Below are positions 35,190-51,401 of a stretch of 64,000 nt of DNA, one piece after another. The stretch lies in IMG/VR virus record IMGVR_UViG_3300025771_003046. One strand, 5' to 3'. The first letter of the stretch is position 1. Each line of letters starts with the position of its first letter. The notes under the pieces are model-generated. The model saw nothing but the letters and a program-made list of their open reading frames with translations. It had not been told where the DNA came from and did no database searches. The translations under genes and the position numbers were made by a program. This DNA comes from an uncultured virus (IMG/VR IMGVR_UViG_3300025771_003046). Its lineage: Duplodnaviria > Heunggongvirae > Uroviricota > Caudoviricetes.

Positions 35190-38100
35190 ATGTCAACAAT
35201 AAGACTCAAGAGAAGTGCTGAGCCGGGTAAAATCCCATCGATTGAACAACTAGAACTAGGCGAAGTAGCTGTCAATACACATGACGGCAAAATGTTTATG
35301 AAAAGAGACCAAAGTGGTAACTTTGCTATAAAAGAATTTGGCGCAAGAGACGCCGCAAGTAATGTGTTTTACGTAACACAAGACGGATCTAATACTAACG
35401 ATGGTAAAACAATAGGAGACGCATTTGCGACTATTGATTACGCTTTAAAAAATATTCCAGAGGGATCAACACTATATGTAAAGGCTGGACAGCACACAGT
35501 TGACAATCCAGTTAAACTTCCGGCATTTGTTGCTATTGTTGGTGACTCACTTAGAACTACATTTGTACAACCAAAAAATCCAGCAGAAGATATATTTTGG
35601 GTTAACAACGGTTGTTTCCTTAAAGATATGCGCTTTAATAACTACATTGCACCTAGTGCAGCAGTTTCGTTCCCCCCAGATGGAAGCGCCGGATCAATTA
35701 TGTGTTCACCGTATGTACAAAACTGTACATCATATACTACAACTGGTACAGGTATGCGAGTTGACGGATCAGTTGTTACTGGCCTACGCTCAATGGTTGT
35801 TGACGCCTATACACAGTATAACCAGGGTGGTATCGGTGTGCATCACCTTAACAGAGGTAACACACAGCTTGTTTCGATCTTTACAATCTCATGTGATATT
35901 TCAATTATGTGTGAAAGCGGAGGCTTTTGCTCACTAACTAACTCAAACACATCATTTGGTAACTACGGACTTATTTCCGATGGTTATAGTGAAGCACTAT
36001 TTGGTGCGTCTGCTGGTGCTAACATTAGTAGAAACTCGATGTTTATGAATGACCTAGTAACGGTTCCATTTATTCAAAACGCATCTGTGTTTAGTGGCAC
36101 TGGTGAAGTTTATACAATTTCAGAAGCTACTCCGATTAAAGTCGGTCAAGGTGTTGTAACTGGACCAACACTAACCCAAGAAGACAGTGATTTATTATTT
36201 GCTAGAGAAAGAATTTTAGCCAATAGAGAAGTAATTCAAAGATCAACAGTTAACTTTGTGAAAGATAATTATCAAACAGGCGGCGAATTTGACGAAGCTA
36301 AATGTGCTAGAGATAGTCAACTTATACTTGATGGTGTAGGTTTTGATGTTGCACTAGATACAAACTTTAACAGTGTTTATAATGGTATTTCGTATCAAAG
36401 AGCAAATGCTAAATTTGTTATTAATACCCAGTTTGAAGCAACAAAAGGCGCAATTGATTTCTTAAAAGCCGAAACAGCAGCTTTACTAAGTGGTACTTCA
36501 TTAACTAGAGCTAATGCAGGATTTGACGATGTAAAAGGAATTCTTGACGGTGGTGTAATAAGCACTACAGTTCCAGGAGATGGTGTAGCCGACGCACTTA
36601 CATTTAGTTCAACACTAGGTGTAACAGATGGTATAAATGCTAGAACAATTTTACAAGCGAATATTGCATTCTTACAAGCAGAAGTACTTGCATTTAACGA
36701 TGATTATAATGCAACGGCGATTGCTGCTGACGCTACCGGTGCAACTACAGTAGTTTATGATAGAGAAAAGTGTCAAAGAGATGTACAATACATTGTAGAC
36801 GCTCTTTCATATGACGCACAGTATGGTGGCAATAGCGCAACAGTATCGGCTATGAATTCTTATATTGTTGGTACAGGAATTGATCAACTTCCAGCAGATC
36901 AAAGAGATCTTACTGCTGATTCATATGCTCACTTAGCAGATATGGTTGCAGCAATTTTAACTGATCCGTCAGTTGATCCTGGTACAAAATTAAGTGCTGG
37001 TAGTCCAGACAATTCCGCAGCGGTTACTGCTGCATCTCTTTCAGGTACAATCGAAGCACTTGTAGATACATTTGCAGGAGTATTAATTGAAGATGCAACG
37101 CCGGCTGGCACACCAACTGCAACTATTCCAGCAGTAGTAACTCCAAATGTTACAACATTGGGTGTAGCAGCAGAGTTTACAACATCGCAAACTGCAATCA
37201 CAAATGCGTCTGCACAAATTGTAGATGATGTAATTGCATTTGTTAATCAAGAATATAATTTCTCTTTCAACCAAGAAAAATGTGCAAGAGATTTACAAGA
37301 AATAATTGATGCAGCTAAAATAGATGCTGTTACAAACTCTTTGTACAATCAAACTGTAGTTGGTTTAACATACACAATGGAAAGTAGTGCTTATCTACTT
37401 AACTTACAAAAAACACAAACCGCAGCAGGTATTCAATATGCTAGAGATTTAGTTACAGCAGACGGTAATTTTACAGATACTACAGACAGAACTGAATTTA
37501 TTAATGCTGTAAACGAAGTAATTAACATATTAAATACAGGAACTCCAACATCTGACTTAACAACTGGTACTTTTGCAACTAATTTTCCAACAAGCACTGA
37601 TTATTCTAATGCAGCAAGTCGTGCAGCCGCAGCTGAAGCAATAATAAACGGTATTCCTTCTTTACAGACTGATGCTCTAACTTTCCTACAGAATGGGAAC
37701 GCAGGTGGTGGTTTTGATTTTTCAGCCCAAGCCGGAGAATTTTCAAGTTTAGCTAGTGGAGGTACTGTTTCATCAGATGAACTAAAATCAGTATACCAAG
37801 ATATGGTAAGAGATGGAACATTTACCAAGTGTCAAAGAGACGTGGCTTACTTAGCACAAGCAGTAGCATTTGATACAATGTATGGTGGTAATAGTGCAAC
37901 TTTGCGTGTAGCAAAATCATACTTTGTAGGTGCAATTGCAGGTGACGACGATACTGAAATATCACAACTAGGTGGCGGACAAAAGAATGCAACACTTGCA
38001 CTATATGCCTTCTTGGCAGTACAAATTGCGGCAGCTGTTAGCGCTGCGTCAGCAAATGCAGGGTTAGGTTCGGGCTCTGGTGCATCAAAAACAATTAATC

Positions 38101-41100
38101 AATTAGTTGCAGTTGTTACTGATCATATTGACGCAGACGGTGTAGCATTAGCTTCTTTAGATACAGTTATACTTGCCAGCCCTGCCGACGACGATGAAAT
38201 TCTAACAGTATCTGAAATTGAAGCAGTTGACGACGAAGCAATTAATGATACAATATTCTATCTACAAGATGCATTTGTACTACTAGACTTTAACGAGTCT
38301 AAGTGCTACAGAGATACAGGTATTATTATTGATGCTGTTGTAGATGACATGGTACTAGGAACAAATTATAAATCAGTAGTTTCTGGTAGAACATATTCAA
38401 TGGATTCAGCGGCACTTGTTATTGCGGATCAAAAAGTAGAAACATTAGCAGCAATAAATCATGCAAGAGACGAAGCACTAGGATTTATCAATGACTTTTC
38501 GTCTAATGCTTCAAAAGTTACAGCATATAATAGAGTACAGTCAAACTTTAATTTGATCTCTGATTTAATTAGTAAGTCAGAGTATGCATTTAAATCATAT
38601 ACAGTAGTAGACGCAGATTACAATCCGACGGCTGCTGGTAACTATGGTAGTACTTCTACTCCTGCAAACAGAGTTATGACATTAACAATTGGCCAGCATA
38701 GTTTTACAACATCAGATACAGTTGTAATTGCTCCTAATAGTTTAACATTCCAGTGTTATTCAAGTGGTGATAATGAGTTCCAAACTATTACACATCCAAG
38801 AGAAGTAGCAGGTCAAAGTGCAGATCCAAATGCAGTATCTCCAGGTTCAGATCCAGCATTTGAAACTCCAGTAGATATTGTTGCAGTTACAGACACTACA
38901 ATTACAGTAGACGTTGGTGTAAATACTGGTGCTGGTAATGTTGAGCATACATTTATTAGTGCTACAGAAAATGGTATAACATATGGTAATTCGTTTATTA
39001 ATTATCCAATGCCAACAAATGTTCTACCAGAAATAAACAGAGCGTTTACAAACATCAAGAAAAACAAAGCATATTTGATTGAAGAAGCAGTTGCTCATAT
39101 CGATCAAAACTATCCGTTACTAGGATACGACAGAGGAACATGCGAAAGAGATATCGGACTTATAATTGATGCTGTGTCATACGATGCAATGTTTGACTCA
39201 AACTTCCGTTCAATTACAGCTGGTAAAGCATATCTAAGAGGTGTTATACAAGTTATAACAGGTGATGTACTTGTAGATGAAACAACTACTACAACAGGTA
39301 TTACTGGTACACTATTAACAATGGATCCAACTAAAACAGTAGTAAATCCAGGTGACGAGTTAACAGTTCTACCAACTGAGCAAAAAATTGCAACACTAGA
39401 ATCATTTAGAAAACTAAGAGATTTACTTGTTCAGATTACATTTGATAATGATACAAAGGCACGTGTAGTAGACCGTATGGATCTTATTATAGATATTGTA
39501 CAAGATGGCGAATCAGTAATTCCAGCAGTAAGTATTCCTACAGCAAACATTACAACTAACGACACAGTAAACTATACAGAAAACTTTAATGCAACTGGTG
39601 TTCCAGAAACAATTACAAACATTGAAAATTCGAGAGAATTTATTATTGCAGAAACAAAGGCATTTATTGATACTAACTTCCCAGCATTATTATCAACTGA
39701 TGCTAACGGTAATATTGTCCGAGACTATAATGCAAACGACAAGTGTGAAAGAGACGTAGGTCTTATATTAGATGCACTAAAATATGACTTAACATATGGC
39801 GGTAATATGGAAACCTTAATAGCTGGTAAAGCATACTTCTCAGATGTTGTTGCATCAGCAGATGGACCAGTTGATTTATTAGGTTCACGTTCAGTAAACA
39901 TAGATATTGTTAATGCTGGTGGTATTCAACTGATTAATCCAATTACAATTACAACATCTATTAAACATGGCTTAGTTGATGGATCACAAGTAACACTACT
40001 AGATATTAGTGGCGTTGTTGAACTAACAGGTAAAACTTTCTTTGTTAAGAAAGTAAGCGACACAGTGTTTGAATTATATGATGATGCAGCCCTAACAATC
40101 CCATTAGACGGTACTACTGGATTTACAGCATATGCTAACTTAGGTGGTACTGTAAGAGTTAATGCAGCAGAAGTAATTGCTACTGTAGAGTCTTATAACT
40201 TCCTAGCAGATCTAATATTGACACTAGGTAATGGTGTTGCTCCAGTTAATCCACAGCAAACAATTGTTACAGCAGGAGCACTGACAACAACTAACAGTCC
40301 AAATGGTACTAGAGCAAAATCACTTGTTGACGATATTATTACTATAATTGAAAACGATAGCTCTGTTCCAGTTGAGTTGCTTGCAGATCCAAGTTGGGTC
40401 ACTGGCTACAATGCAACCGAAACATATCCGTTAGAATTAAATGGCACCGATCTTTATTCAGACTTCTTGATTATGCAAGGTGAAAAAGATGATATACAAT
40501 CAGAAATTACAAGATTTATTGAAGCAAACTTTGCTTATGATAAAAAAGTATGCCGTAGAGATATGGGATACATTATTGATGCTACATTATTTGATGGACT
40601 ATACAACGGTAACAGTGCAAGTTATGATGCAGCAAGACAATACTATACACAAGGTAAACTAGTTATTCCAGCAATCCAGCGTAAAGCAACAGGTGACGCA
40701 ATGGAACTTCTTAGAAAGCGTATAGGTGATGTACTACGTTCAAACAGAGTTGTTGCAGAACAACTTCCAACATCGCCGACATTAGTGCTACAAGATACAA
40801 CTACTCCAGCAGCCACAATTACTGAAATTCTAAGAATTCAGAAAAACTTTGATGTACTTGAAAGTCAAATACGTAGAGATTATTTCATCAATGACTTTAT
40901 TGATGTAATTGATCCTGACTTTAATCTTCAAACAGAAACAGCAAACAAAATTAGAAATAAGATACTTGCTGAAAAAGAAAACCTACAGGTTAAAACAATT
41001 AAATTTATCGATACAACATTTAGAGAATTCCGTTTTGATAGAGAAGTTTGCTCAAGAGATGTAGGACTTATTTTAGATGCAGTTGCAATGGATGTTGCAC

Positions 41101-44100
41101 TAGGTACTAACTATAATTCAATTATTGCAGGTCTATCATATCAAAGAGGTAGTTTGTCAATTGGTACTGTTAAAGATGAGCAGAAGCCACAAACAATAGC
41201 AGCTATTGAATTCCTAAAAACAGAAACACTAGCAATTTCAGGACTGTCAGCAACAGGTATTGCAAGAGCAACAGCAGCATTTGATGAAATTATAGACATC
41301 TTTACAAATGGTGAAACAAGTACTAGAACAGCAGCAGATGCAATTACATATCCAGTTCCGACAGGTGTTGATACTAACAAACAAAACTCACATGACTTGT
41401 TACGTGCTAACAGAGACTTTATATCTGAAGAGATTATTGAATGGATTGAAGATAACTTTACAAACTTTGAATATGATGAGTTTAAGTGTGAAAGAGACAC
41501 AAGAATTATACTAGATGCAATTGCACTAGACGCAGCTCTAAATACAAACTATAACACAATTACAGTAGCACTTGCATACAAGCGTGTAAATGCACAACTA
41601 GTAATTACAGATCAGTTGATACAAACTGTAGCAGCTATGGATTATCTACGCAAATTAGTAGACGAAAACAAAGATCTAAGTGTTATTGGTCGTGCAAGAA
41701 TGACACGTTTAATCGATGATATTATAGAAATTGTACAATCAGATACAACTGACTTAGATGTATTTGACAGTACAAACTTTGATAGTACACTACTTAACGC
41801 ATACGAAAACATTGAAATGAATGCACCTAAAAATGCAACACAAGATGAAATCGATGCCAAAGAGCAGTTAAAACTTAACAAAGAATTCTTAGCAAGTGAA
41901 GTATTAGCGTTTATCAACTTAAACAATCCGACACTAGACTATGTTGAAGCTAAGTGTAAAAGAGACGTTAAATTCTTACTTGATGCAGCAGCATTTGACT
42001 TACTATACGGTGGTAACTCAGCAACTGTACAAGCGGCTAATAGCTACTTTGTAGGAACAGCTAACCAGTTAGGTGATGACGAAGTACAAGCAACAATCGA
42101 TGCTTATAACCATTTAAAAACTGTTATTGAACCAGTTGTACTTGCAACTAGTGAAGATAACAATCCAGTATATGTACCAACAGCTGGTAATAGTATGCGT
42201 CAAATTATCGAAAGTGATCCAGGAACAGCTACTGAAGTTGCAGCTATTCAAGCATCGCTTGATATTGTTATTGCTAGAATACAAGGCACACCGACACCAA
42301 CACTAGTTAAGCCAAGTTTAACAGGTGCTGATGCTAACTTAATTAAAGACTTTAATGAAATATCAGAGACTGCTTCAGTAGAAGCACAGAAAGTTGTAGA
42401 TTATGTAAATGATCAATTTGCAAACTTTACATATGATATTGACAAGTGTGCAAGAGATGTTAAACTAGTTGTACTAGGCGCAGCAATTGACTTAGAGTAT
42501 TCAACTAACTATAACAGTGTAACTAATGGTCTTTCATACCTAAGAGGAAATGCTAAGAAAGTTTCAAACGCATTCCAAAAAGCAATTACACTAGCCGCAC
42601 TTGATAAACTAAAAACACTAGCAGCTACAACTATCGGAACAGGTACAGGTTATGCAGCAGCAGTAACAGCAGTTAATGCAAGTATTGATACAGTAAAAAC
42701 AATATTTGATGAAGGTTTAGTTGGCATAACACCAACAAACGCTGTATATGATCCAACAACAGGTGTTATGGATCTTACAATTGGCGAGCATACATTCATA
42801 CAAGGTGATACAATTACACTAGAGCCAGGCAGCTTGAAATTTACTTGTGCAAGTGACGGAAACAACGTTGTACAAGCATACCCAAGAACAAGTGATCCGG
42901 CATTTAATTATACACTAAAAATTATTGACACTGGTAAACTAACAATAAGTGTAAACGTTGGAGTATCATCAGAAACATCAGCGCACACATTTATTACAGC
43001 AGATGAAAAAGCAATTAAAACTGGTGCTCTTCCAAATGCAGTTCCGGCGCTAACATTTGCAGGTATAGATGCAACAAATGACTCGGCTTATGCAGCAAAA
43101 GCAATACTTGCTAACAAAGCGTTTATTGCAGCAGAGATGTCAGCATATGTTGTAAATGATCCTAACTTTATACTAGTTGGTAACTACGATGAAACAAAAT
43201 GTCGTAGAGATTCAAATAATATATTAGATGCAGTTGCATTAGATTTGCGTACAGGTTCAAACTATAACTCACTATATGCAGGTATTGCATACACAAGAGC
43301 AAATAGTGATTATGTAATTAGTGCCCAAAAATCAGCAACAATAGCAGCTATTGAATTCTTAAGAGATACTGTAAAAGCACTATCAAATGTTGATGCAGCA
43401 GCAGACACAAGAATTGATTCACTATTTGCAATTATTATCGCAGCAATTAACAGTGGCGCTACAAGCACGTTGCTTCCAGGAGGCGCTACAGGCGTTCCAC
43501 TATTAAGTCTTCCAACTCCGAATACTCCAATTGCAGGCGGCGCAGATGCAGCAGCACGTTTAACATATAACAGAGATGCGTTAGCAGAAGAAGTACTAGA
43601 ACACATTAACCAAAATGCAAATGCTATATACCTATCTATGGATCAAGCTAAATGTTCAAGAGATGTAAAATACATTGTTGAAGGACTAGCACATGATGCA
43701 GTATATGGTGGTAACATTGGTGCTAAACTAAATGGCGAAGCATACTTTGTAGGTAACGATACTGAACAGTTAGGCATTGGTCAAAGATCTGCAACAGTAG
43801 CAGCATATCAACATCTTGCACAAGTAATAGAGCAGTTAGTCGGCGCAGGTGTAGCTGATGCTGGATTCACTAGCGTAATATTAGTAGCTAACCCAACTCA
43901 AGCGTGGAGTGATAATTCAGTACCTAATGCAGCAACAATAGCAACTTACTTAGCAGACAGTTCAACTGGGTTAATTGAAACTTGCATAGTTGCACCTATT
44001 AATGCAAACAAATTGGCTAACTTCTACACACCAACAGCGGCATCATATGTTCCAACTACAGGTGTACTAACACTTACTGTAACTGGTAATCCGTTCTCAA

Positions 44101-47100
44101 ATGGTGATACAATTAGACTAGCAGAACGTAGCATTGGATTTAAATGTCAAAGTGATGGATTTAGAAAAGTATTCTACTATCCAAGAACAACTGATCCAGC
44201 ACTTAACTCAGACTTAACAATAAGTAACGTAGTAGGTGATAGTTTTGACGTCCAGATTGGTGTATCATCAGAAGAAAGTACACATCAGTTCGTAGGACCA
44301 GCTACAAATGCAATCATTGATAGCACATTACCAGATGATGTACAACCAGCAAGTGCTCAGTATGTAACAACTGTATCGTTCACAGATGCAGCAACAGCAA
44401 TTGTTGCAGGATCAGGAACAGCAGTAGATTCAACAATATCTTATATCAATTCAGATCTAAGCTTTAACCAAACTAAGTGTGAAAGAGACACAGGTTACAT
44501 TGTTGAAGCATTAACACATGATACATTGTACGGCGGCAATTATGCAACTACACAAGCAGCTCTAGCTTATAGAGTTGGTGTCGCAGGACAGTTAGGTAGT
44601 AATTCACCTGAAACTACAGCAACAGTAGCAGCATATGGTACACGTTTACCAGCAGTAGTACAAGCAATTGTTCAAGGCGATGCACTAACACCGTCAACAG
44701 GCAATTCAGTGACTCAAGTTGCAAATGCAAATACAGTAAGCCCGTGGACTAATGCTAATGCAACTATTGCAGCAGATATTCAAAATATTGTAGATGTTAT
44801 TGAGCATGGCGGTGATCCACTATCAGTTGATGCTTCGATGATAGCAGAAACTAACATAACTGAAGGTACAATATATGATGCAGAATCAGGTGTACTAACA
44901 CTAACACTTAGCGGCACATCTACAGGACTAGTAGCAGGTACAAGCACAATTAGACTAGCACGTAATAGTTTAACATTTACTTGTGCAAGTGATTCACATG
45001 CTACTTCATTAACATATCCAGACAAAGATAGTTTTGGTTATGATAGAGAATTAAGAGTATTAAGTGTTGCAGAAGCAGGTAACACAACTATTACTGTTAA
45101 CATAGGTAATGCACGTAAACTAGGTGCTACTTCAGCAGATAGAATACACAGATTTGTAAGTGCAGCAGCTAATGCAGTTGTATTACCAATTTCACCAACA
45201 AGACCAACTATAGCAAACACATTTGCTACATCACTTGTAACAAAAGCCGATGCAGCAAGCGATAACTTTGGTGATTTGATAAATGCATATCTACTATCAG
45301 ACTTCCCAACAAGCACATACGATAGAACACGTTGTAAGCGTGATGTAGGATTTATTGTAGACGCTCTATCATACGATGTACTATATGGCGGTAACAGCGC
45401 AATGCGTGAAGTTGCAAGAAGCTACTTTAGCTTTGGTCTAAACTTACTAGGTGATGATTCTAAAGAAACAGATGCAACAATATTTGCATATGAGCACCTA
45501 AGTAGTATTATTGGAGAGATTGTACAAGGTGTACAAGTAGGAAAAGCTACAGGTAACTTATTAGTACAAACATATGATACAGCAAGTACACTAGCAGAAG
45601 CAGCAGTTGCTCAAACACTACTAAAACTAGTTACAGATACAATTAGAGATAGAAGTGTTAATAAGCTAGATGAGCAAGAGCTACCAGATATTACTTGGGC
45701 AGCGTCAGAATTCCAAAATGACTTTGCAAGCATTACTTTTAACAAGTCAGTAGCACAAGCTGATACACTACAGTTTATTGACGATAGATACACAACATTT
45801 AGTTACGATCAGTTTAAGTGTTCAAGAGACGTTGGATTGATCTTAGATGCTGTTTTAGCTGATATGGTAATGGGTGGTAACTACCAGTCATTACTAGCAG
45901 GAAGCAGTTATTACAGAGCAAGTGCGTTTATTGTAAAAGGCGATCAGCTACCAGAAACAATTGAATCAATCAAATTCTTGAAGAAAGAAGTTGAGAAAAT
46001 CTTAACAGATCCATTGTTTACAGCAACAGTTGTTCCAGGTACATATCCTAACCCAACTATAAGAGCTATTACTCCGTTAGAAGCTATTGAAAATGCTAAA
46101 ACACTAACTGAAGTATTTGGTGATACGCAAGAGTATGCAGATCTTATTGCAAGATTTAATGATGTTCTTAGAGTTATGGAAAATGGACTAACTAACGCAG
46201 CTGAAGATCAAATACAATTTGTTGCTCCAACTGGAATTACAGGAACAAGAACTAATGCTAAAGACATATTACTTGCAAACAAAGAATTCTTTGTTGAAGA
46301 GTCAGTGGCGTTTATCAAAGAAAACTTCCCACTAATTGGATATGACAGACAGACTTGTGAAAGAGATGTAGGACTAGTTCTTGATGCTCTAGGGTTTGAC
46401 TTAATGTTTGGTTCAAATATGCGTAGTATTACAGCAGGTAGATCTTACTTTAGAGAAGGCGCTGCTGTTGTAAGTGCAGATCAAAAGAAAGCAACACTAG
46501 CAGCATTTGAATTCTTAAAAGTTAAAGCAGCAGAAGTTGTAAGCAGTGCAATACTATCAAATGGTTCTTACGTAGCACCAGGCGGAAATAAAGAATTTAT
46601 CATAACAGTAGGTGCTGACTCATATGAACAAAAACCAACTGGTGTATTCTACTTAGATGGTATAGAGCAGCCGATAATAGAACTAGATCCGGGTGCAGTA
46701 TATACCTTTAATCAAGATGATCCAACTAACGCTTACTTTGGCGATAATCGTCATCCTCTAGTGTTTAGCACAACAAGAGATGGTGATAATGCAGGTGGTA
46801 CAACTTATGACACTGGTATTGCTTACTACTTAGACGGTGTATCAGTTGACGAAGCACAGTACGAAAGAGGATTTGCTAGAGCAACACTACGTAGAGTAGA
46901 ACTTGATCTTAGAGGCAAGTATACAACAGAACTATACTATGCAGGCGGCGCCCGCAAAGGTATGGGTAACTTAATCTACGTAAAAGCAAAAACAACAGGT
47001 GAACCGATTAAAAAGTCTATACAAGATAATATGAATGTTATTCTTGCACTTCTTGATAGAGGTAATGTTACTTGGCAGCCATATGATGCAGAATATAAAA

Positions 47101-50066
47101 CAGTAGGCACAGATACAAGTGGTAATCTAAAACTTTACATTAGAGAAAATCCATTTAAGGTCGGAGATAAAATTAAACTAAAACCAAATAGTTTGACATT
47201 TACATGTGCATATGATACTACTACTCCGTTATCATATCCAGATTATAACGGCGGAACTGGTGCAGCTCCAGCATGGCAAGCAGATTTAGAAATCACAGCA
47301 GCAGATGATGTTAGTATTACTGTTAACGTTGGAGATGCCGCAGGCGCAGCAGCAACTAGTGTTCATACATTTGTAAGTGCAGATATTGATACTATTAGTT
47401 TAGTTCCAGGATATGTAACACCAAGCCCAACTGGTTATGATGCAGGAACTTACCTAAGTACATATAAACAAGCTAGAGATAATATCGAAGCTAACAGAGA
47501 GTTTATAATTGCAGACGTAATCGGATTCATTGAAACTGATGATACATTACTAGGATTTGACAGAGATACTTGTGCAAGAGATACTGGACTAATAATTGAT
47601 GCAATATCATGGGATTTAGTATTTGATTCAAACCAACAAAGTATTACAGCAGGTAGAGGATATCTAAGACAAGATGTAGGAGTTCTTCCAGCAACTCAAA
47701 CAGCAGCTACAACAGCAGGATTTGATAGACTAAGAGACTTACTTTTGGCTCTAGTAATTCAAACTGGTGCAGATGCAGAAAGAGCAAAAGAAAGTATTTC
47801 GGCTAACATTGGTCTAATAAATGATATCATTACTAATGGTGATAGTCAAACAATTCCATCTAGAAAACTTCCAGCACCAACAACAGGCGCAGCAATTGTT
47901 CCAACTGCTATTACATATACTCCAGCTGATGGTTTAATGGTTATTACATCAGAAGCGCATGGTTTAAATGTAGGCGATTATGTAATGATTGCAGACGAGA
48001 GTTTAACATTTACTTGTGAAAGTTCTCTAGGAAGTGGTATACTAGAAAAAATTAGTCATCCAAGATCAAACGAGTATGCAAGCCGTAGAGCAATTATTGT
48101 TTCAGCAGTAGCTGATGCCAATACATACACTATTAACATTGATCCAAATCTTGAAAACAGTGGCGACGGTAATGTTGCTCATACATTTGTAAGTGCAAGC
48201 GCAAATGCAATTAAGAAAGCAGAAGATGCTAATGGTAAATTAGATGTATTCTTTAACATTAGCGCACAGCGTACATGGATTATCGATGCAGTAGAAGACT
48301 ATATTGAAGATGCTACCGGATTAAATCAACCAGCTGGTAGTTGGAATACCAAGTGTAAAGAAGACATAGGTCTAATAATTGACGCAGCATTGTATGACTT
48401 AATGTACGGTACCAATCTTGAAACACGCACAGCAGCACAAGCATATACAACCGATGCAGGTGTATTACTACTAGGTGCAGACCCAACTGAAAGATCTAAC
48501 ACTATTGCAGCATATGTATATCTAGCAGACTTGCTTGAGCAAGTTGGTAATGATGTAGTTACAGAAACTTTATATGGCGATACAGCAACAGCTGGATTTA
48601 CAGCAACTGGTACAGTACCAGGCGGCAACGGATCTCCTGCACTAGCAGCTCATGATAGTGTTGAAGTTGTTAGAGCTTACCTAGATGCATATGTTACAAG
48701 TGCAACTGATAATGCAACTGACAAAGCAGCAGCAGAAGCTACACTTCCTGCAGTTGCTTATGGTTCGAGAACTTGGTCTTCAACTACACAACAAGCTATA
48801 TTCAACCAATTCCAAAGTGAACGTCAAGAATTGCAAGATGCAGTTACAGCGTTTATTGAAGAGAACTTTGCTTATGTGCAAGAAAAATGTAAGAGAGATG
48901 TAGGCTATATTCTAGATGCAGTTTATTACGATATGACATATGGTGGTAATAGCGAAACGTTTACAGTTGGTAAGAGTTACTTCTCCGACGAAGGTGTAAA
49001 TCAATTAAGAACACTAAGAGAAGTAAATGCAACTCAAGCAGCATACGGACACTTAAGAGACTTAGTAGAAGCAGTTGCCATTGGTGATGACACCGTGGCG
49101 TTGATTGCAACTCCTAAACAGACAGATATTGCTTATAATTCAACAGCAGTTGATCAGGGAGGCAGCAATGCTGGTAGTACCCAGGCTAAATTACTAATAA
49201 GCAATGTGTTAAGTTTCTTAGATGATACTATTAATAGAACAAATGTAATACCAACTGTAGCTGAAACTACTCCATCTACATCATGGGTAGCAGCTGATCT
49301 AGTAACAGCCGCAACTGCACTAACTGATGCAAAGCGTACAGTACAAGATGAAACAACTGTATTCATTGAAGAAAATTATGCTTACATTAAATCTAAGTGT
49401 GAAAGAGATATTAGATACATTGTAGATGCAGTTGCATACGACATATTCTATGGTGGTAACTCACAAGCACATCTAGCAGCAGAGCAATATTTTGACGGAG
49501 GTAATTATCAAATACCAGTTCCAACAAAGAATGCTACAGTACAGACATTTAAATATCTACTAGAAATAATGTCAGATGCTGTACGTAACATTACTGTGTC
49601 TGCATTACAAAATAGAGTAATCCAAACTACAACTGGCGCATCTGCAACAACGTTTGAAGCAGATCGTATTAAGGACTTGTTAACAATTATTGTTAATCTA
49701 GTACAGCATGGTTACTCAAGTCAAGTTACATTTGATGTTAATATCACAACAATACCGAGAATTAACGAAAGTGTAACATTCCACCAAACAAGTTTGATTA
49801 CAGCAAGTGGACAAACATTTGAGTGGGTTGGATCCGGAACTAATATTCAATCAGCGGTTCCATACAAAGGCGGACAACCAGTTGAAGCACAACAGGTAGT
49901 GGAAAGTAACGAAGGTAAAGTTTACTTTACAAGTACTGACCAAAAAGGTGACTTCAAAATTGGTAACAGCTTAACTATTGAACGTGCGTCTGGTACGATT
50001 ACTGGACAGACTTTTGATAGATCACTATTCGCGGTGTTAACACCATACATCTTGTCACTACAGTAA
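35190..50066 (+). CDS. Giant (4958-aa) virion protein: N-terminal attachment motif and beta-helix-like region, 22 CxRD helical repeats, inserted beta domains
   Basis: N-terminus IRLKRS...GEVAVNTHDGKMF, then VFYV..DG.N.NDG...AFATI..A...IVGDSLR (pectin-lyase-like start). Central repeats KCxRD(V/T)GxI(I/L)DA...D...(YGGN/xTNYNS). Confidence 0.85.
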   Translation: MSTIRLKRSAEPGKIPSIEQLELGEVAVNTHDGKMFMKRDQSGNFAIKEFGARDAASNVFYVTQDGSNTNDGKTIGDAFATIDYALKNIPEGSTLYVKAGQHTVDNPVKLPAFVAIVGDSLRTTFVQPKNPAEDIFWVNNGCFLKDMRFNNYIAPSAAVSFPPDGSAGSIMCSPYVQNCTSYTTTGTGMRVDGSVVTGLRSMVVDAYTQYNQGGIGVHHLNRGNTQLVSIFTISCDISIMCESGGFCSLTNSNTSFGNYGLISDGYSEALFGASAGANISRNSMFMNDLVTVPFIQNASVFSGTGEVYTISEATPIKVGQGVVTGPTLTQEDSDLLFARERILANREVIQRSTVNFVKDNYQTGGEFDEAKCARDSQLILDGVGFDVALDTNFNSVYNGISYQRANAKFVINTQFEATKGAIDFLKAETAALLSGTSLTRANAGFDDVKGILDGGVISTTVPGDGVADALTFSSTLGVTDGINARTILQANIAFLQAEVLAFNDDYNATAIAADATGATTVVYDREKCQRDVQYIVDALSYDAQYGGNSATVSAMNSYIVGTGIDQLPADQRDLTADSYAHLADMVAAILTDPSVDPGTKLSAGSPDNSAAVTAASLSGTIEALVDTFAGVLIEDATPAGTPTATIPAVVTPNVTTLGVAAEFTTSQTAITNASAQIVDDVIAFVNQEYNFSFNQEKCARDLQEIIDAAKIDAVTNSLYNQTVVGLTYTMESSAYLLNLQKTQTAAGIQYARDLVTADGNFTDTTDRTEFINAVNEVINILNTGTPTSDLTTGTFATNFPTSTDYSNAASRAAAAEAIINGIPSLQTDALTFLQNGNAGGGFDFSAQAGEFSSLASGGTVSSDELKSVYQDMVRDGTFTKCQRDVAYLAQAVAFDTMYGGNSATLRVAKSYFVGAIAGDDDTEISQLGGGQKNATLALYAFLAVQIAAAVSAASANAGLGSGSGASKTINQLVAVVTDHIDADGVALASLDTVILASPADDDEILTVSEIEAVDDEAINDTIFYLQDAFVLLDFNESKCYRDTGIIIDAVVDDMVLGTNYKSVVSGRTYSMDSAALVIADQKVETLAAINHARDEALGFINDFSSNASKVTAYNRVQSNFNLISDLISKSEYAFKSYTVVDADYNPTAAGNYGSTSTPANRVMTLTIGQHSFTTSDTVVIAPNSLTFQCYSSGDNEFQTITHPREVAGQSADPNAVSPGSDPAFETPVDIVAVTDTTITVDVGVNTGAGNVEHTFISATENGITYGNSFINYPMPTNVLPEINRAFTNIKKNKAYLIEEAVAHIDQNYPLLGYDRGTCERDIGLIIDAVSYDAMFDSNFRSITAGKAYLRGVIQVITGDVLVDETTTTTGITGTLLTMDPTKTVVNPGDELTVLPTEQKIATLESFRKLRDLLVQITFDNDTKARVVDRMDLIIDIVQDGESVIPAVSIPTANITTNDTVNYTENFNATGVPETITNIENSREFIIAETKAFIDTNFPALLSTDANGNIVRDYNANDKCERDVGLILDALKYDLTYGGNMETLIAGKAYFSDVVASADGPVDLLGSRSVNIDIVNAGGIQLINPITITTSIKHGLVDGSQVTLLDISGVVELTGKTFFVKKVSDTVFELYDDAALTIPLDGTTGFTAYANLGGTVRVNAAEVIATVESYNFLADLILTLGNGVAPVNPQQTIVTAGALTTTNSPNGTRAKSLVDDIITIIENDSSVPVELLADPSWVTGYNATETYPLELNGTDLYSDFLIMQGEKDDIQSEITRFIEANFAYDKKVCRRDMGYIIDATLFDGLYNGNSASYDAARQYYTQGKLVIPAIQRKATGDAMELLRKRIGDVLRSNRVVAEQLPTSPTLVLQDTTTPAATITEILRIQKNFDVLESQIRRDYFINDFIDVIDPDFNLQTETANKIRNKILAEKENLQVKTIKFIDTTFREFRFDREVCSRDVGLILDAVAMDVALGTNYNSIIAGLSYQRGSLSIGTVKDEQKPQTIAAIEFLKTETLAISGLSATGIARATAAFDEIIDIFTNGETSTRTAADAITYPVPTGVDTNKQNSHDLLRANRDFISEEIIEWIEDNFTNFEYDEFKCERDTRIILDAIALDAALNTNYNTITVALAYKRVNAQLVITDQLIQTVAAMDYLRKLVDENKDLSVIGRARMTRLIDDIIEIVQSDTTDLDVFDSTNFDSTLLNAYENIEMNAPKNATQDEIDAKEQLKLNKEFLASEVLAFINLNNPTLDYVEAKCKRDVKFLLDAAAFDLLYGGNSATVQAANSYFVGTANQLGDDEVQATIDAYNHLKTVIEPVVLATSEDNNPVYVPTAGNSMRQIIESDPGTATEVAAIQASLDIVIARIQGTPTPTLVKPSLTGADANLIKDFNEISETASVEAQKVVDYVNDQFANFTYDIDKCARDVKLVVLGAAIDLEYSTNYNSVTNGLSYLRGNAKKVSNAFQKAITLAALDKLKTLAATTIGTGTGYAAAVTAVNASIDTVKTIFDEGLVGITPTNAVYDPTTGVMDLTIGEHTFIQGDTITLEPGSLKFTCASDGNNVVQAYPRTSDPAFNYTLKIIDTGKLTISVNVGVSSETSAHTFITADEKAIKTGALPNAVPALTFAGIDATNDSAYAAKAILANKAFIAAEMSAYVVNDPNFILVGNYDETKCRRDSNNILDAVALDLRTGSNYNSLYAGIAYTRANSDYVISAQKSATIAAIEFLRDTVKALSNVDAAADTRIDSLFAIIIAAINSGATSTLLPGGATGVPLLSLPTPNTPIAGGADAAARLTYNRDALAEEVLEHINQNANAIYLSMDQAKCSRDVKYIVEGLAHDAVYGGNIGAKLNGEAYFVGNDTEQLGIGQRSATVAAYQHLAQVIEQLVGAGVADAGFTSVILVANPTQAWSDNSVPNAATIATYLADSSTGLIETCIVAPINANKLANFYTPTAASYVPTTGVLTLTVTGNPFSNGDTIRLAERSIGFKCQSDGFRKVFYYPRTTDPALNSDLTISNVVGDSFDVQIGVSSEESTHQFVGPATNAIIDSTLPDDVQPASAQYVTTVSFTDAATAIVAGSGTAVDSTISYINSDLSFNQTKCERDTGYIVEALTHDTLYGGNYATTQAALAYRVGVAGQLGSNSPETTATVAAYGTRLPAVVQAIVQGDALTPSTGNSVTQVANANTVSPWTNANATIAADIQNIVDVIEHGGDPLSVDASMIAETNITEGTIYDAESGVLTLTLSGTSTGLVAGTSTIRLARNSLTFTCASDSHATSLTYPDKDSFGYDRELRVLSVAEAGNTTITVNIGNARKLGATSADRIHRFVSAAANAVVLPISPTRPTIANTFATSLVTKADAASDNFGDLINAYLLSDFPTSTYDRTRCKRDVGFIVDALSYDVLYGGNSAMREVARSYFSFGLNLLGDDSKETDATIFAYEHLSSIIGEIVQGVQVGKATGNLLVQTYDTASTLAEAAVAQTLLKLVTDTIRDRSVNKLDEQELPDITWAASEFQNDFASITFNKSVAQADTLQFIDDRYTTFSYDQFKCSRDVGLILDAVLADMVMGGNYQSLLAGSSYYRASAFIVKGDQLPETIESIKFLKKEVEKILTDPLFTATVVPGTYPNPTIRAITPLEAIENAKTLTEVFGDTQEYADLIARFNDVLRVMENGLTNAAEDQIQFVAPTGITGTRTNAKDILLANKEFFVEESVAFIKENFPLIGYDRQTCERDVGLVLDALGFDLMFGSNMRSITAGRSYFREGAAVVSADQKKATLAAFEFLKVKAAEVVSSAILSNGSYVAPGGNKEFIITVGADSYEQKPTGVFYLDGIEQPIIELDPGAVYTFNQDDPTNAYFGDNRHPLVFSTTRDGDNAGGTTYDTGIAYYLDGVSVDEAQYERGFARATLRRVELDLRGKYTTELYYAGGARKGMGNLIYVKAKTTGEPIKKSIQDNMNVILALLDRGNVTWQPYDAEYKTVGTDTSGNLKLYIRENPFKVGDKIKLKPNSLTFTCAYDTTTPLSYPDYNGGTGAAPAWQADLEITAADDVSITVNVGDAAGAAATSVHTFVSADIDTISLVPGYVTPSPTGYDAGTYLSTYKQARDNIEANREFIIADVIGFIETDDTLLGFDRDTCARDTGLIIDAISWDLVFDSNQQSITAGRGYLRQDVGVLPATQTAATTAGFDRLRDLLLALVIQTGADAERAKESISANIGLINDIITNGDSQTIPSRKLPAPTTGAAIVPTAITYTPADGLMVITSEAHGLNVGDYVMIADESLTFTCESSLGSGILEKISHPRSNEYASRRAIIVSAVADANTYTINIDPNLENSGDGNVAHTFVSASANAIKKAEDANGKLDVFFNISAQRTWIIDAVEDYIEDATGLNQPAGSWNTKCKEDIGLIIDAALYDLMYGTNLETRTAAQAYTTDAGVLLLGADPTERSNTIAAYVYLADLLEQVGNDVVTETLYGDTATAGFTATGTVPGGNGSPALAAHDSVEVVRAYLDAYVTSATDNATDKAAAEATLPAVAYGSRTWSSTTQQAIFNQFQSERQELQDAVTAFIEENFAYVQEKCKRDVGYILDAVYYDMTYGGNSETFTVGKSYFSDEGVNQLRTLREVNATQAAYGHLRDLVEAVAIGDDTVALIATPKQTDIAYNSTAVDQGGSNAGSTQAKLLISNVLSFLDDTINRTNVIPTVAETTPSTSWVAADLVTAATALTDAKRTVQDETTVFIEENYAYIKSKCERDIRYIVDAVAYDIFYGGNSQAHLAAEQYFDGGNYQIPVPTKNATVQTFKYLLEIMSDAVRNITVSALQNRVIQTTTGASATTFEADRIKDLLTIIVNLVQHGYSSQVTFDVNITTIPRINESVTFHQTSLITASGQTFEWVGSGTNIQSAVPYKGGQPVEAQQVVESNEGKVYFTSTDQKGDFKIGNSLTIERASGTITGQTFDRSLFAVLTPYILSLQ
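36290..49480 (+). repeat. 22 protein-level CxRD repeats (21 CxRD, one CKED)
   Basis: Cys codons at 36303, 36771, 37281, 37830, 38304, 39141, 39744, 40551, 41049, 41487, 41955, 42447, 43200, 43653, 44478, 45333, 45819, 46356, 47571, 48354, 48888, 49398. Confidence 0.92.
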
Positions 50067-50079
50067 GAGGAAATAAATC

Positions 50080-50418
50080 ATGGCCGAACCATTAAACGTA
50101 TTTAAGACAATAACAGCAGACTTAACAACTGGGAACGAAATTGTATATACTGCCCCAGACGGAAAAACTGCAATCATATTGATGGCACAAATATCAAATG
50201 TAACAACTACAGCAGCAGCTACTAGTTTTTTACACTTTGATGCTTTCACTGCTGATCAAACAGAACTACTATCTAATTTTGTAGTTCCAGGTAACGATGC
50301 TACAAGTCCTATCACAGGTAAACTTGTGGTAGAAGAAAATAACTCGTTACGGGCACAAGCATCAGTAAACGATGCACTAGTGTTAACATTAAGCTTATTG
50401 GAGTCACTAAATGCATAA
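50080..50418 (+). CDS. Small beta-sandwich virion protein
   Basis: FKTITADLTTGNEIVYTAPDGKTAIILMAQISN...GKLVVEENNSL...LSLLE; paralog of 51069. Confidence 0.75.
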   Translation: MAEPLNVFKTITADLTTGNEIVYTAPDGKTAIILMAQISNVTTTAAATSFLHFDAFTADQTELLSNFVVPGNDATSPITGKLVVEENNSLRAQASVNDALVLTLSLLESLNA

Positions 50419-51068: not shown

Positions 51069-51401
51069 ATGCCAAATAATAGTTTTAAATCTGTTAACAC
51101 AGTAATAACTACAGTTAATGAAGTAATCTATACAGCCCCTCCGGGATTTACAACAATTGTGATTAACGCACAATTAGCAAACACAGCAGAAACAGACGTC
51201 AATTGTACATTTAGTTATGTTGAAAGTTCTTCAGGAAGTGAAACAAATCTTATAAGAGATTTTCGTGTTAGAGGTAACCAATCGCAGTCTGCGATTATGG
51301 GACGTCTAGTTATTAACGAAAACGACTCAATTAAGTGTCGATCAAATATCGATGCACCAATAAGATTAAGTTTAAGCTTGCTGGAGACTGAGGATGTCTA
51401 G
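51069..51401 (+). CDS. Small beta-sandwich virion protein (paralog of 50080)
   Basis: FKSVNTVITTVNEVIYTAPPGFTTIVINAQLAN...GRLVINENDSI...LSLLE. Confidence 0.75.
   Translation: MPNNSFKSVNTVITTVNEVIYTAPPGFTTIVINAQLANTAETDVNCTFSYVESSSGSETNLIRDFRVRGNQSQSAIMGRLVINENDSIKCRSNIDAPIRLSLSLLETEDV

Follow-up and report, generated by a model that had tools for sequence, protein, structure and literature searches.

The giant ORF and its context

The window analysed here is the whole stretch of 64,000 nucleotides, in which the genes for the portal, the protease and the major head protein are followed, among large structural ORFs, by one giant ORF (35190..50066, plus strand; P0001) that encodes 4958 aa and contains an entire array of repeats. 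This ORF is matched by two tail-fibre PHROGs, 5342 and 4527, and by PHROG 701 for virion structural proteins, with E values of 1e-128 to 1e-190, and Synechococcus phages account for 340 of the 428 matching phage records. Judged from its sequence, the best explanation is that its product would belong to the virion of an aquatic T4-like phage, as a protein of fibre or baseplate type. The ORF has exactly 22 matches to C-x-[RE]-D, spaced 146-405 aa apart, which bears out the 22 repeats placed here by a preliminary description; the interval that it gave, 36303..49400, is bounded by the Cys codons of repeats 1 and 22. A search for related loci with the segment of repeats 5-8 recovered only loci that are 93-99% identical.

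The features of the giant ORF are listed below, with the evidence for each in brackets. The partner of a repeat is the one that the order of the two repeat classes, A and B, would imply if it is read as nested brackets (see the next section).

35190..36167, +: N-terminal base domain, aa 1-326 (phrog_17885; fibre N-terminal motif and pectate-lyase-like beta-helix)
36168..36605, +: repeat 1, class A, partner 2 (motif, tree, class HMMs)
36636..37121, +: repeat 2, class B, partner 1 (motif, tree, class HMMs)
37146..37583, +: repeat 3, class A, partner 4 (motif, tree, class HMMs)
37695..38180, +: repeat 4, class B, partner 3 (motif, tree, class HMMs)
38169..38606, +: repeat 5, class A, partner 8, outer pair (motif, tree, class HMMs)
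38688..39017, +: accessory beta domain 1, aa 1167-1276, junction of repeats 5/6 (jackhmmer; phrog_1276)
39006..39443, +: repeat 6, class A, subtype of 18 and 19, partner 7, with a loop insert of ~45 aa (motif, tree)
39609..40094, +: repeat 7, class B, N.ET subtype, partner 6 (motif, tree)
39942..40145, +: E1_FCCH-like small beta-barrel within repeat 7, aa 1585-1652 (PF16190, E 2.3e-5, 24.8 bits, under the cut-off of 29.5)
40416..40901, +: repeat 8, class B, clade of 22, partner 5 (motif, tree)
40914..41351, +: repeat 9, class A, partner 16, outermost pair of the branched unit 9-16 (motif, tree)
41352..41789, +: repeat 10, class A, partner 11 (AlphaFold2 with repeat 11; VIA)
41820..42305, +: repeat 11, class B, partner 10 (AlphaFold2 with repeat 10; VIA; PF00502, E 0.11)
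42312..42749, +: repeat 12, class A, partner 15 (unit-level alignment to P0123; VIA)
42780..43064, +: accessory beta domain 2, aa 2531-2625, junction of repeats 12/13 (jackhmmer seed)
43065..43502, +: repeat 13, class A, partner 14, a unit within pair 12/15 (unit-level alignment)
43518..44003, +: repeat 14, class B, partner 13 (unit-level alignment)
44079..44360, +: accessory beta domain 3, aa 2964-3057, junction of repeats 14/15 (jackhmmer; phrog_1276, strongest over aa 2949-3043)
44343..44828, +: repeat 15, class B, partner 12 (unit-level alignment)
44922..45227, +: accessory beta domain 4, aa 3245-3346, junction of repeats 15/16 (jackhmmer)
45198..45683, +: repeat 16, class B, partner 9 (motif, tree)
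45684..46121, +: repeat 17, class A, partner 22 (motif, tree)
46221..46658, +: repeat 18, class A, subtype of 6 and 19, partner 21 (tree; unit-level alignment to P0123)
46557..47138, +: beta-rich insert of ~190 aa, roughly aa 3790-3983, behind the repeat 18 core (sequence read)
47139..47426, +: accessory beta domain 5, aa 3984-4079, junction of repeats 18/19 (jackhmmer)
47436..47873, +: repeat 19, class A, partner 20, innermost unit of 17-22 (tree; unit-level alignment)
47949..48251, +: accessory beta domain 6, aa 4254-4354, turn at repeats 19/20 (jackhmmer)
48219..48704, +: repeat 20, class B, C-K-E-D, N.ET subtype, partner 19 (motif)
48753..49238, +: repeat 21, class B, N.ET subtype, partner 18 (motif; unit-level alignment)
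49263..49748, +: repeat 22, class B, clade of 8, partner 17 (motif, tree)
49725..50063, +: C-terminal base domain, aa 4846-4958 (phrog_3442, profile 3856-3965 of 3967)

The six copies of the accessory beta domain were found with jackhmmer seeded with aa 2531-2625. Across homologs, these accessory domains are not enriched at any type of junction (AA, AB, BA and BB, 5-9% each), and the insert that follows repeat 18 has no family match in Pfam or PHROGs.

Two classes of repeat in a nested order

A single IQ-TREE branch (support 86/93), present in 84% of 200 bootstrap trees, parts 11 A from 11 B repeats, and none of 500 label shuffles was as clustered as the A/B labels, in agreement with the two classes of 11 already proposed in the preliminary description. 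Class-specific HMMs return the order ABABAABBAABAABBBAAABBB which, as had also been claimed, is a balanced bracket (Dyck) word. Taken by itself, this order is not significant, since the chance of a balanced word for 11 A and 11 B is 1/12, or 0.32 if the first A and the last B are granted; significance comes from the homologs. Within the classes, repeats 6, 18 and 19 form a clade in the 22-repeat tree (86/82), as do repeats 8 and 22 (93/89), while the grouping of 7, 20 and 21 is weak and has repeat 16 included (71-77) and repeats 5 and 17 are not sisters.

A phycobiliprotein-like fold

Each repeat is a globin domain of phycobiliprotein-like type, and the bilin-site motif Cys-x-Arg-Asp is retained. 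PF00502 exceeds its cut-off in all 11 homologs scanned (27-37 bits versus 22.2); it is not listed for the window protein at E <= 0.1, and among the 22 single repeats of the window it is found in repeat 11 only, with an E value that is not significant. The B-class profile compared with the PDB gave 22 matches, 21 of which are phycocyanin alpha chains with the repeat Cys on Cys84, the repeat motif being aligned to K-C-A-R-D and the alignment ending at G102-G103 of 1f99_A. The A-class profile alone had no match in the PDB, and the whole window protein had a single one with phmmer (phycocyanin alpha, E 0.22). Structural evidence came from an AlphaFold2 model of repeats 10-11 (aa 2055-2374, 38-row alignment; pLDDT 89.0, pTM 0.87), for which all 50 VIA rows are phycobiliproteins or derivatives, both domains being matched (Z 13.9-15.8, rmsd 1.9-3.4 over most alignments, 121-150 residues). 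Foldseek returned nothing at E <= 0.001 for this model, its rows having a probability of 1.00 and TM scores of 0.56-0.70. A model of repeats 12-15 (18-row alignment) was of low confidence (pLDDT 62.5, pTM 0.42) and only repeat 12 in it was matched by VIA, to phycobiliprotein chains (Z 14.9-16.0, rmsd 2.0-2.3 over 130 residues).

The bilin-site motif, which we take to be Cys84-x-Arg86-Asp87 in phycobiliprotein numbering, is almost invariant. C-x-[RE]-D is present in 22 of 22 window repeats, with Arg in 21, and among 2188 repeats Cys is found in 2184, Arg in 2070 and Asp in 2187. The N-terminal X-Y helix hairpin is missing: single-domain structural alignments start at chain residues ~19-35, and the stretch ahead of the Cys is only ~40 residues long in every repeat. 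In VIA rows spanning 57..311, helices of the A domain occupy the place of the B domain's own X-Y hairpin, and the adjacent A-B pair 10-11 is predicted with confidence to pack together. The comparison of A/B units with alpha/beta protomers made in the preliminary description was apt in view of the PF00502, B-profile and VIA matches. A strict mapping in which B would be alpha and A would be beta was rejected: the B profile does match alpha chains, but for both classes the structural matches are a mixture of alpha and beta chains.

Orders among homologs

Repeat order was examined in 337 proteins, and the main count covers those that share the C-domain of the window protein and have every repeat unambiguously classed, which amounts to 23 distinct orders. 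Balanced bracket words make up 20 of these, versus 3.77 expected on letter shuffling; the expectation that homologs would also give balanced orders thus held within the family sharing this end domain, while some sister families break the rule. The product of chances for the homolog orders is 1e-17, or 1e-6 with the first A and the last B granted, and since distinct orders share ancestry these products are upper bounds on significance. The numbers of A and B are equal in 22 of the 23 orders, which points to selection on pairing. The three exceptions to the bracket rule are BA and BBA, each in one protein, and P0019, which has 36 repeats with A and B equal in number, is not A-first and dips below zero once. 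Left out of this count are 38 ambiguous orders (46 proteins), only five of which form bracket words if every repeat is given its best-scoring class. Orders from full-domain HMMs, which split insert-bearing domains and added fragment matches, were not used; these HMMs also gave a hint that the 11-repeat family has a degenerate 12th domain.

Among proteins without this C-domain, six orders consist of a bracket word plus an extra final B (for instance AAAABBABBBB, in 28 proteins). Others are irregular (ABBAB, ABBAAB, AAABBBAA, AAAABBBBA and BBABABABABAB) as read by a classifier trained on the window, and the subfamily of P0052 and P0081 has uniform repeats of 108-118 aa in which the A/B split is absent.

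The base protein and its probable growth

The ends of the giant protein are shared with much smaller ones. In 78 repeat-free homologs of ~440 aa (one of ~780 aa), the N-domain is directly joined to the C-domain; short homologs match the query at 2-324 and then at ~4857-4958, and in P0137 and P0152 the C-domain lies within ~10 residues of the N-domain. The two profiles that cover the 441-aa P0137 end to end, phrog_17885 and phrog_3442, are found at aa 3-439 and 4848-4957 of the window protein. PF12708 is weak in short homologs and absent from the window's own N-terminal piece. Sequence comparison thus places the 22-repeat array inside a beta-helix tail protein of 440 aa, which it divides into two halves, and, because these halves are contiguous in short homologs, the ends of the array must meet.

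Longer relatives carry AB (16), ABAB (3), AABABB (5) or larger arrays, the largest with 36 repeats. In 11 unit-level alignments of relatives, most differences are two-unit indels of an adjacent A and B, several of which fall inside a hairpin (P0123/P0124, P0214/P0206 and P0123/P0126). Two outer pairs of the window, (12,15) and (18,21), are aligned with A and B units that lie side by side in P0123, so that these outer pairs would have begun packed. Both findings uphold the proposal that new A+B units were inserted between the halves of older pairs.

Co-variation of bracket partners

If bracket partners belong together, their subtypes should be congruent, as the preliminary description had noticed in the window. 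Similarity between A repeats does predict similarity between their bracket partners, with a summed Mantel r of 10.8 over 19 proteins, versus 0.96 for parallel pairing and 0.02+-1.26 for random pairings, none of 2000 of which reaches 10.8. Congruence extends to partners that are not adjacent in sequence (summed r 8.28 over 12 proteins, versus 0.08+-1.77 at random; 0/2000), and in the window protein alone r is 0.68, a value reached by 16 of 2000 random pairings. The proposed link between F(D/G)SN..SITAG in A repeats and N.ET in their partners, scored with the pattern F[DGN]SN..SI[TV]AG, was confirmed across homologs (partner table [[21,5],[17,119]], p 8e-12) and for outer partners (table [[10,1],[4,53]], p 3.5e-8). 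A second link, between DMV in repeats 5 and 17 and AAxQY..IP in repeats 8 and 22, fared less well: the motif association is weak (p 0.018; 0.14 for outer pairs) and its A members are not sisters.

A folding model and its alternatives

The nested order, kept by relatives, suggests that the chain folds back into branched ladders of paired domains, and we judge it reasonably likely that the chain forms intramolecular alpha/beta-like pairs and has grown through nested insertion. In the corresponding scenario, the base would be a beta-helix protein of ~440 aa and the array would have grown in a loop between its N-terminal 326 and C-terminal ~113 residues. One A and one B of the two paralogous classes would pack as the intramolecular counterpart of an alpha/beta phycobiliprotein protomer, and new A-B units would be added at linkers, including the A-to-B linker of an older unit, from which a bracket-word order follows. 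The folded chain would run outward through A domains and return through B domains, giving single rungs 1:2 and 3:4, a two-rung hairpin with 5:8 around 6:7, a branched unit with 9:16 around 10:11 and 12:15 (the latter around 13:14), and a three-rung hairpin of 17:22, 18:21 and 19:20. All five structures would have their root in the beta-helix base, and small beta domains would decorate them. We infer both the contact of distant partners and the ladder geometry; the function of such a fibre would presumably be reach and adhesion, possibly with bound bilin.

The alternative that survives best, and that we nevertheless regard as unlikely, is that the order records history only. Copying an AB cassette into linkers gives bracket words by construction, so that the order may exist without present-day pairing; only A and B adjacent in sequence would be paired, the outer domains being free beads or packed otherwise. 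This would be consistent with a confident fold for the adjacent pair only, the four-repeat model being poor, and with relatives that differ by adjacent A+B indels, and co-duplication of whole hairpins can account for part of the co-variation of partners. However, the equal numbers of A and B point to selection on pairing, and outer partners co-vary at varying sequence distance while parallel pairing fails. The match between outer pairs of the window and side-by-side A and B units in relatives and the need for the array ends to meet also speak against it.

Pairing of A in one chain with B in another chain of an oligomeric fibre, in which balance would be needed for stoichiometry and not for hairpins, appears improbable. 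Phage fibres are commonly trimers and phycobiliproteins form (alpha-beta)3 rings, their alpha/beta units ringing up in phycobilisome discs, and equal A and B numbers are the strongest regularity in the data. Nevertheless, stoichiometry alone leaves unexplained why 20 of the 22 orders balanced in number are A-first and why indels occur inside pairs, and it is bracket partners, not parallel ones, that co-vary. A linear beads-on-a-string fibre, whose balanced order would be due to coincidence and shared ancestry, is very improbable: the window order by itself is within reach of chance and sub-blocks are common to many homolog orders, but this reading is at odds with the excess of balanced words, the partner co-variation, the insertion of the array in a loop of a compact protein and the pTM of the A-B pair.

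Comparison with known systems

The closest parallel to the intramolecular pairs favoured here is the phycobiliprotein protomer (CpcA/CpcB, ApcA/ApcB and CpeA/CpeB; PF00502), with which the repeats share the globin-like fold (in phycobiliproteins, helices A, B, E, F', F, G and H), K-C-x-R-D on Cys84, domains of ~125-160 aa and two paralogous classes that apparently pair one-to-one. They differ from it in that 22 domains lie in one virion-protein chain, which in the window falls below the Pfam threshold, and in that they lack the N-terminal X-Y hairpin, from which the alpha/beta interface is built in phycobiliproteins. Polymeric multi-domain globins such as the nine-domain haemoglobin of brine shrimp also have many globin-fold domains in one polypeptide, but their domains all belong to one class, follow one another in plain tandem and bind haem, and the proteins are non-viral; the best full-length Foldseek rows are engineered tandem di-alpha haemoglobins, with an rmsd of 16. 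In nested domain insertions and in the hairpins of SMC/Rad50, the chain leaves a domain and returns, so that distant halves pair. To our knowledge, known cases of this kind have one or two levels and involve unrelated domains, whereas here there would be 11 pairs from two homologous classes, branching and up to three deep, under a rule that many relatives keep.

The giant tail-fibre-like proteins of T4-like cyanophages (PHROGs 5342, 4527 and 701) belong to the same repeat family and have tail fibre or structural annotations; members whose C-terminus differs carry 9-19 repeats, with B in excess by one. A literature search for the fold and repeat order of these cyanophage proteins found no prior description. 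Distant phycobiliprotein homologs outside cyanobacterial antennae are represented by the bilin biosynthesis-associated globins (BBAGs), which are described as self-assembling biliproteins (Rockwell, Martin and Lagarias 2023, PMC10151467). In the available part of that paper, phages are mentioned for PcyX/PcyA only, and repeat arrays and virion proteins are absent.

Bilins and implications for phage biology

A bolder reading, which we consider doubtful, is that the fibre is a biliprotein, with a bilin on the conserved Cys of each of the 22 domains and nested A:B rungs stacked like short phycobilisome rods, making it a branched, pigmented and light-responsive appendage of the virion. In the 109.9-kb record of this phage, bilin reductase, haem oxygenase, psbA and CpeT are all absent; as the record is 30% complete, this says little. 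One of five larger related records has adjacent genes for haem oxygenase and bilin reductase. The role of phage bilin-synthesis genes and of a CpeT-like protein is called a mystery, or unresolved, in the available part of one study (PMC3037559), and if the biliprotein reading is true these genes would gain a target of the phage's own.

If the architecture proposed here is true, it would represent a rare bracket grammar of two domain classes in one chain, with relatives of 2 to 22 repeats. The nested order formally resembles the non-crossing base pairing of RNA, and the topology of hairpins and branches in the fold would be readable from sequence much as RNA stems are. A giant protein would be shown growing by new pairs placed inside old ones, and phycobiliprotein-like domains would be placed in the fibres of abundant aquatic phages, cyanophage relatives included. 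The purpose of phage bilin-synthesis and cpeT genes, and the light-only adsorption of some cyanophages, would become testable at the bench. Even without a ligand, such an architecture would explain how fibres of thousands of residues can have both chain ends in one base domain.

Genomic setting of the giant ORF

The window is a T4-like myovirus structural module. Its genes encode a baseplate hub, late sigma factor, SbcCD-like nuclease, portal, prohead protease and major head protein, and several very large ORFs come after them; the parent virus record is 109.9 kb long and 30% complete (CheckV). Positions 1239-64000 map to this record; bases 1-1238 are reported as N or as lying off that contig, yet ORFs were read there. 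The features concerned are as follows.

29120..33655, + strand: structural ORF just 5' of the giant ORF, 1511 aa, phrog_8578 (function unknown)
33657..35021, + strand: structural ORF just 5' of the giant ORF, 454 aa, weak tail-spike and head-decoration-like matches
35190..50066, + strand: giant repeat ORF, 4958 aa; no complete ORF of the window is larger
46557..47138 (aa ~3790-3983): beta-rich insert of ~190 aa behind the core of repeat 18; no Pfam or PHROGs family at the thresholds used
50080..50418 and 51069..51401, both + strand: two free-standing phrog_1276 beta-domain ORFs, 112 and 110 aa
52570..63999, continuing past the window end, + strand: second giant ORF, at least 3810 aa, directly 3' of the repeat ORF

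The giant ORF matches PHROG families 5342, 4527 and 701, annotated as tail fibre or virion structural protein (E 1e-128 to 1e-190), and tblastn with it matched 428 phage records (340 from Synechococcus phages), with identity below 60% in all. The repeats are absent from both upstream ORFs, and the second giant ORF has no C-x-R-D motif, no repeat-HMM match and no PHROG family; it is beta-rich with short periodic G-D/N-rich stretches, an architecture unlike that of its neighbour. The beta domain of the two small ORFs also occurs as six insertions within the giant protein.

Identity and fold of the repeats

The giant protein contains exactly 22 matches to C-x-[RE]-D, and the limits that the preliminary description set for the repeat span coincide with Cys codons (the first at 36303, the last at 49398). 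Homology between repeats is clear across ~150 aa. Against the PDB, a profile of all 22 gave eight weak matches, five of them phycocyanin alpha chains, and a profile of the B class (defined below) gave 22, with a best E of 0.032, all but one of them phycocyanin alpha chains (21 of 22). The A-class profile had zero matches. The K-C-x-R-D of the repeats aligns to K-C-A-R-D, so that the repeat Cys falls on Cys84, the bilin-attachment residue of phycobiliproteins, where Arg86 and Asp87 complete the bilin-site motif. Among 2188 repeats of 121 homologues, Cys is conserved in 2184, Asp in 2187 and Arg in 2070. The giant protein lies under the Pfam PF00502 threshold; all 11 homologues scanned scored 27-37 bits (cut-off 22.2).

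Repeats 10-11 (aa 2055-2374) were modelled by AlphaFold2 with pLDDT 89.0 and pTM 0.87; the alignment used had 38 rows, made up of A-B pairs taken from the window and IMG/VR loci. Foldseek returned nothing at E <= 0.001 for this model; it matched phycoerythrin and other phycobiliprotein chains with probability 1.00 and TM 0.56-0.70. In VIA-align, all 50 matches listed were phycobiliproteins, phycobilisome core-linker domains or derived fluorescent proteins (Z 13.9-15.8; most rows with rmsd 1.9-3.4 across 121-150 residues), and both domains matched. True phycobiliproteins possess an N-terminal X-Y hairpin, whereas the phage repeats have the fold and the Cys motif but lack the hairpin; since some VIA alignments span model residues ~60 to 311, helices of the A domain occupy the place of the B domain's own X-Y hairpin. 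Because this defining feature is missing and a bound pigment is putative, the domains are called phycobiliprotein-like, by fold and motif, and not phycobiliproteins.

Two classes in a balanced order

A single branch of the maximum likelihood tree (support 86/93) parts the same 11 A from 11 B repeats that the preliminary description had told apart, and none of 500 label shuffles was as clustered. Of the proposed subtypes, {6,18,19} and {8,22} form supported clades and {7,20,21} a weak group, while 5 and 17 are not sisters. Class HMMs reproduced the order ABABAABBAABAABBBAAABBB, a balanced bracket word if A opens and B closes. Taken alone, this balance is not significant: a random order of 11 A and 11 B would be balanced with probability 1/12, and with probability 0.32 if it must also begin with A and end with B.

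An array inserted in a beta-helix base protein

Residues 1-330 were used to look for shorter relatives, which gave 3205 proteins, of which 120 are listed. Among these listed matches, 78 are repeat-free (77 of ~440 aa, one of ~780 aa), with an N-domain (query 2-324) followed within ~10 residues by a C-domain (query ~4857-4958). The 4500-residue array thus interrupts a compact beta-helix tail protein at one of its loops, and the two ends of the array must meet again. The base protein belongs to phrog_17885 and phrog_3442; PF12708 matches are weak and found in homologues. Complete longer relatives among the matches listed have the orders AB (16 proteins), BA (1), ABAB (3) and AABABB (5), and also ABAABBAB, ABAABBAABB, ABAABABBAABB, AABBAABABBAABB, AABBAABBAAABBB and more.

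In 11 unit-level alignments between relatives, most differences were side-by-side indels of an A and a B. Several fall in mid-hairpin: A[AB]B against AB in the homologue pairs P0123/P0124 and P0214/P0206, and AA[AB]BB against AABB in P0126/P0123. The preliminary description had proposed that new units were inserted between the halves of older ones, and this is what comparison with P0123 reveals, the extra units being window repeats 13-14 and 19-20. In P0123, the repeats that align with outer pairs (12,15) and (18,21) are AB neighbours in sequence, which ties these outer pairs by descent to neighbouring pairs like the one modelled with confidence by AlphaFold. Even in messier comparisons (P0034/P0035 and P0053/P0055), the indels total equal A and B.

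Co-variation of bracket partners

With one protein per distinct bracket order (n=19, at least eight repeats each), similarity between A repeats was correlated with that between their bracket partners, and r was summed over proteins. The sum was 10.8, against 0.02±1.26 for random pairings (0/2000 reached 10.8) and 0.96 for parallel pairing, in which the k-th A of a unit is matched with its k-th B. Non-adjacent partners alone gave 8.28 in 12 proteins (random 0.08±1.77; 0/2000), and the window protein by itself 0.68 (16/2000 random pairings). The link noticed between F[DGN]SN..SI[TV]AG in A and N.ET in its B partner holds in 24 proteins: 21/26 A repeats with the motif have such a partner, against 17/136 of those lacking it (p 8e-12), and p is 3.5e-8 when the count is confined to outer partners. 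That between DMV and A..QY..IP is weak (p 0.018; 0.14 for outer partners).

On these data, distant bracket partners probably pair physically, although with a fair margin for doubt. That the order records history only is unlikely: whole-hairpin duplication adds to the co-variation signals, yet leaves the failure of parallel pairing unexplained. The AlphaFold2 model of repeats 12-15, intended to probe contacts between distant partners, was of low confidence (pLDDT 62.5, pTM 0.42), from a shallow 18-row alignment. Pairing of A with B between chains seems decidedly improbable.

Conservation of the order among relatives

HMMs trained on the window's A and B repeats served to classify the repeats of 337 proteins, of which 241 came from databases and 96 were complete ORFs of IMG/VR loci. 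Orders were counted in proteins that have a window-type C-domain and in which the class of every repeat was decided by 5 bits or more. As anticipated for homologues, 20 of the 23 distinct orders counted are bracket words, against 3.77 expected from shuffling the letters of each order, which makes a balanced order by chance scarcely credible. Two of the other three are balanced but not A-first (BA and that of the 36-repeat P0019), and one is unbalanced (BBA). The product of chances across the 23 orders is 1e-17, or 1e-6 with first A and last B granted; because of common ancestry among the orders, the significance is exaggerated in both cases. Moreover, since any string with equal A and B permits a non-crossing matching, the informative regularities are the equal numbers and the A-first orientation.

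The count left out 38 orders (46 proteins) with at least one ambiguous repeat; if each repeat is given its best-scoring class, five of these orders are bracket words. Among those left out are a 30-repeat and a 34-repeat family in which repeats 1 and 4 are of further types (QSTFAGLQYW; GGNRQ..QSG.YYY) unplaceable by the A/B HMMs. These types flank an ordinary A-B pair, as repeats 1 and 4 of P0019 and P0016 and in loci L031, L056, L059, L079 and L080, and look like another co-varying partner pair that the HMMs class poorly. Also left out was a subfamily (P0052, P0081 and relatives) with uniform 108-118-aa repeats, no A/B split and a C-domain as in the window protein. Its members have 22 repeats in ~4200-4600 aa with the signature YGGNERS..AG.YYY.YPS, in groups spaced by 380-800-aa inserts, the first and last repeat of each group having signatures of their own.

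Two sets of orders go against the rule. Six consist of a bracket word to which a single surplus B is added at the end, in proteins without the window-type C-domain, for example AAAABBABBBB (28 proteins) and ABAAABABBBB (12); members include P0050, P0112, P0102, P0047 and P0051, loci such as L156, L180 and L201, and an abundant 11-repeat cyanophage family. A domain without the Cys motif, lost in the course of evolution, may be the partner of the lone final B; there are hints of such a degenerate 12th domain in the 11-repeat family from full-domain HMMs. Several locus ORFs have irregular orders (ABBAB, ABBAAB, AAABBBAA, AAAABBBBA, BBABABABABAB). Some irregular and extra-B orders may come from missed or misclassed repeats.

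Possible pigment and proposed architecture

BBAGs show that distant relatives of the phycobiliprotein fold can be self-assembling biliproteins outside antennae (PMC10151467), and the role of phage pcyA and pebS is termed a mystery and that of cpeT unresolved (PMC3037559). This literature is a reason for testing a pigment reading, not evidence that the repeats carry bilin. The phage's own record, a 30% complete fragment, gave no match to CpeT, psbA, haem oxygenase or bilin reductase. Five larger records of related phages were searched as well. In one of them, 328 kb long and 92% complete, a haem oxygenase gene (55.5 bits) is adjacent to a gene for a ferredoxin-dependent bilin reductase (56.8 bits; L299/L300, G001:C1:163526-164702); the other four, including a complete 258-kb record, have neither. 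This 328-kb jumbo phage record also holds locus L040, which encodes a repeat protein of the giant protein's family. In the portions of the literature accessible to search, no paper was found that describes phycobiliprotein-like domains in phage fibres or a rule for their order.

In the architecture proposed, A and B would be two phycobiliprotein-like domain classes packing one-to-one within the chain. The array would have grown as A-B units were added at linkers, among them the one that joins the two halves of an earlier pair, and selection would have retained a B for each A. Six small beta domains, an E1_FCCH-like barrel and the ~190-aa insert would decorate linkers and one turn. One-to-one packing, insertion at linkers and selection would together yield five paired units, each with its root in the beta-helix base: 1:2; 3:4; 5:8 around 6:7; a branched unit, 9:16 around 10:11 and 12:15 (itself around 13:14); and a triple unit, 17:22 around 18:21 around 19:20.
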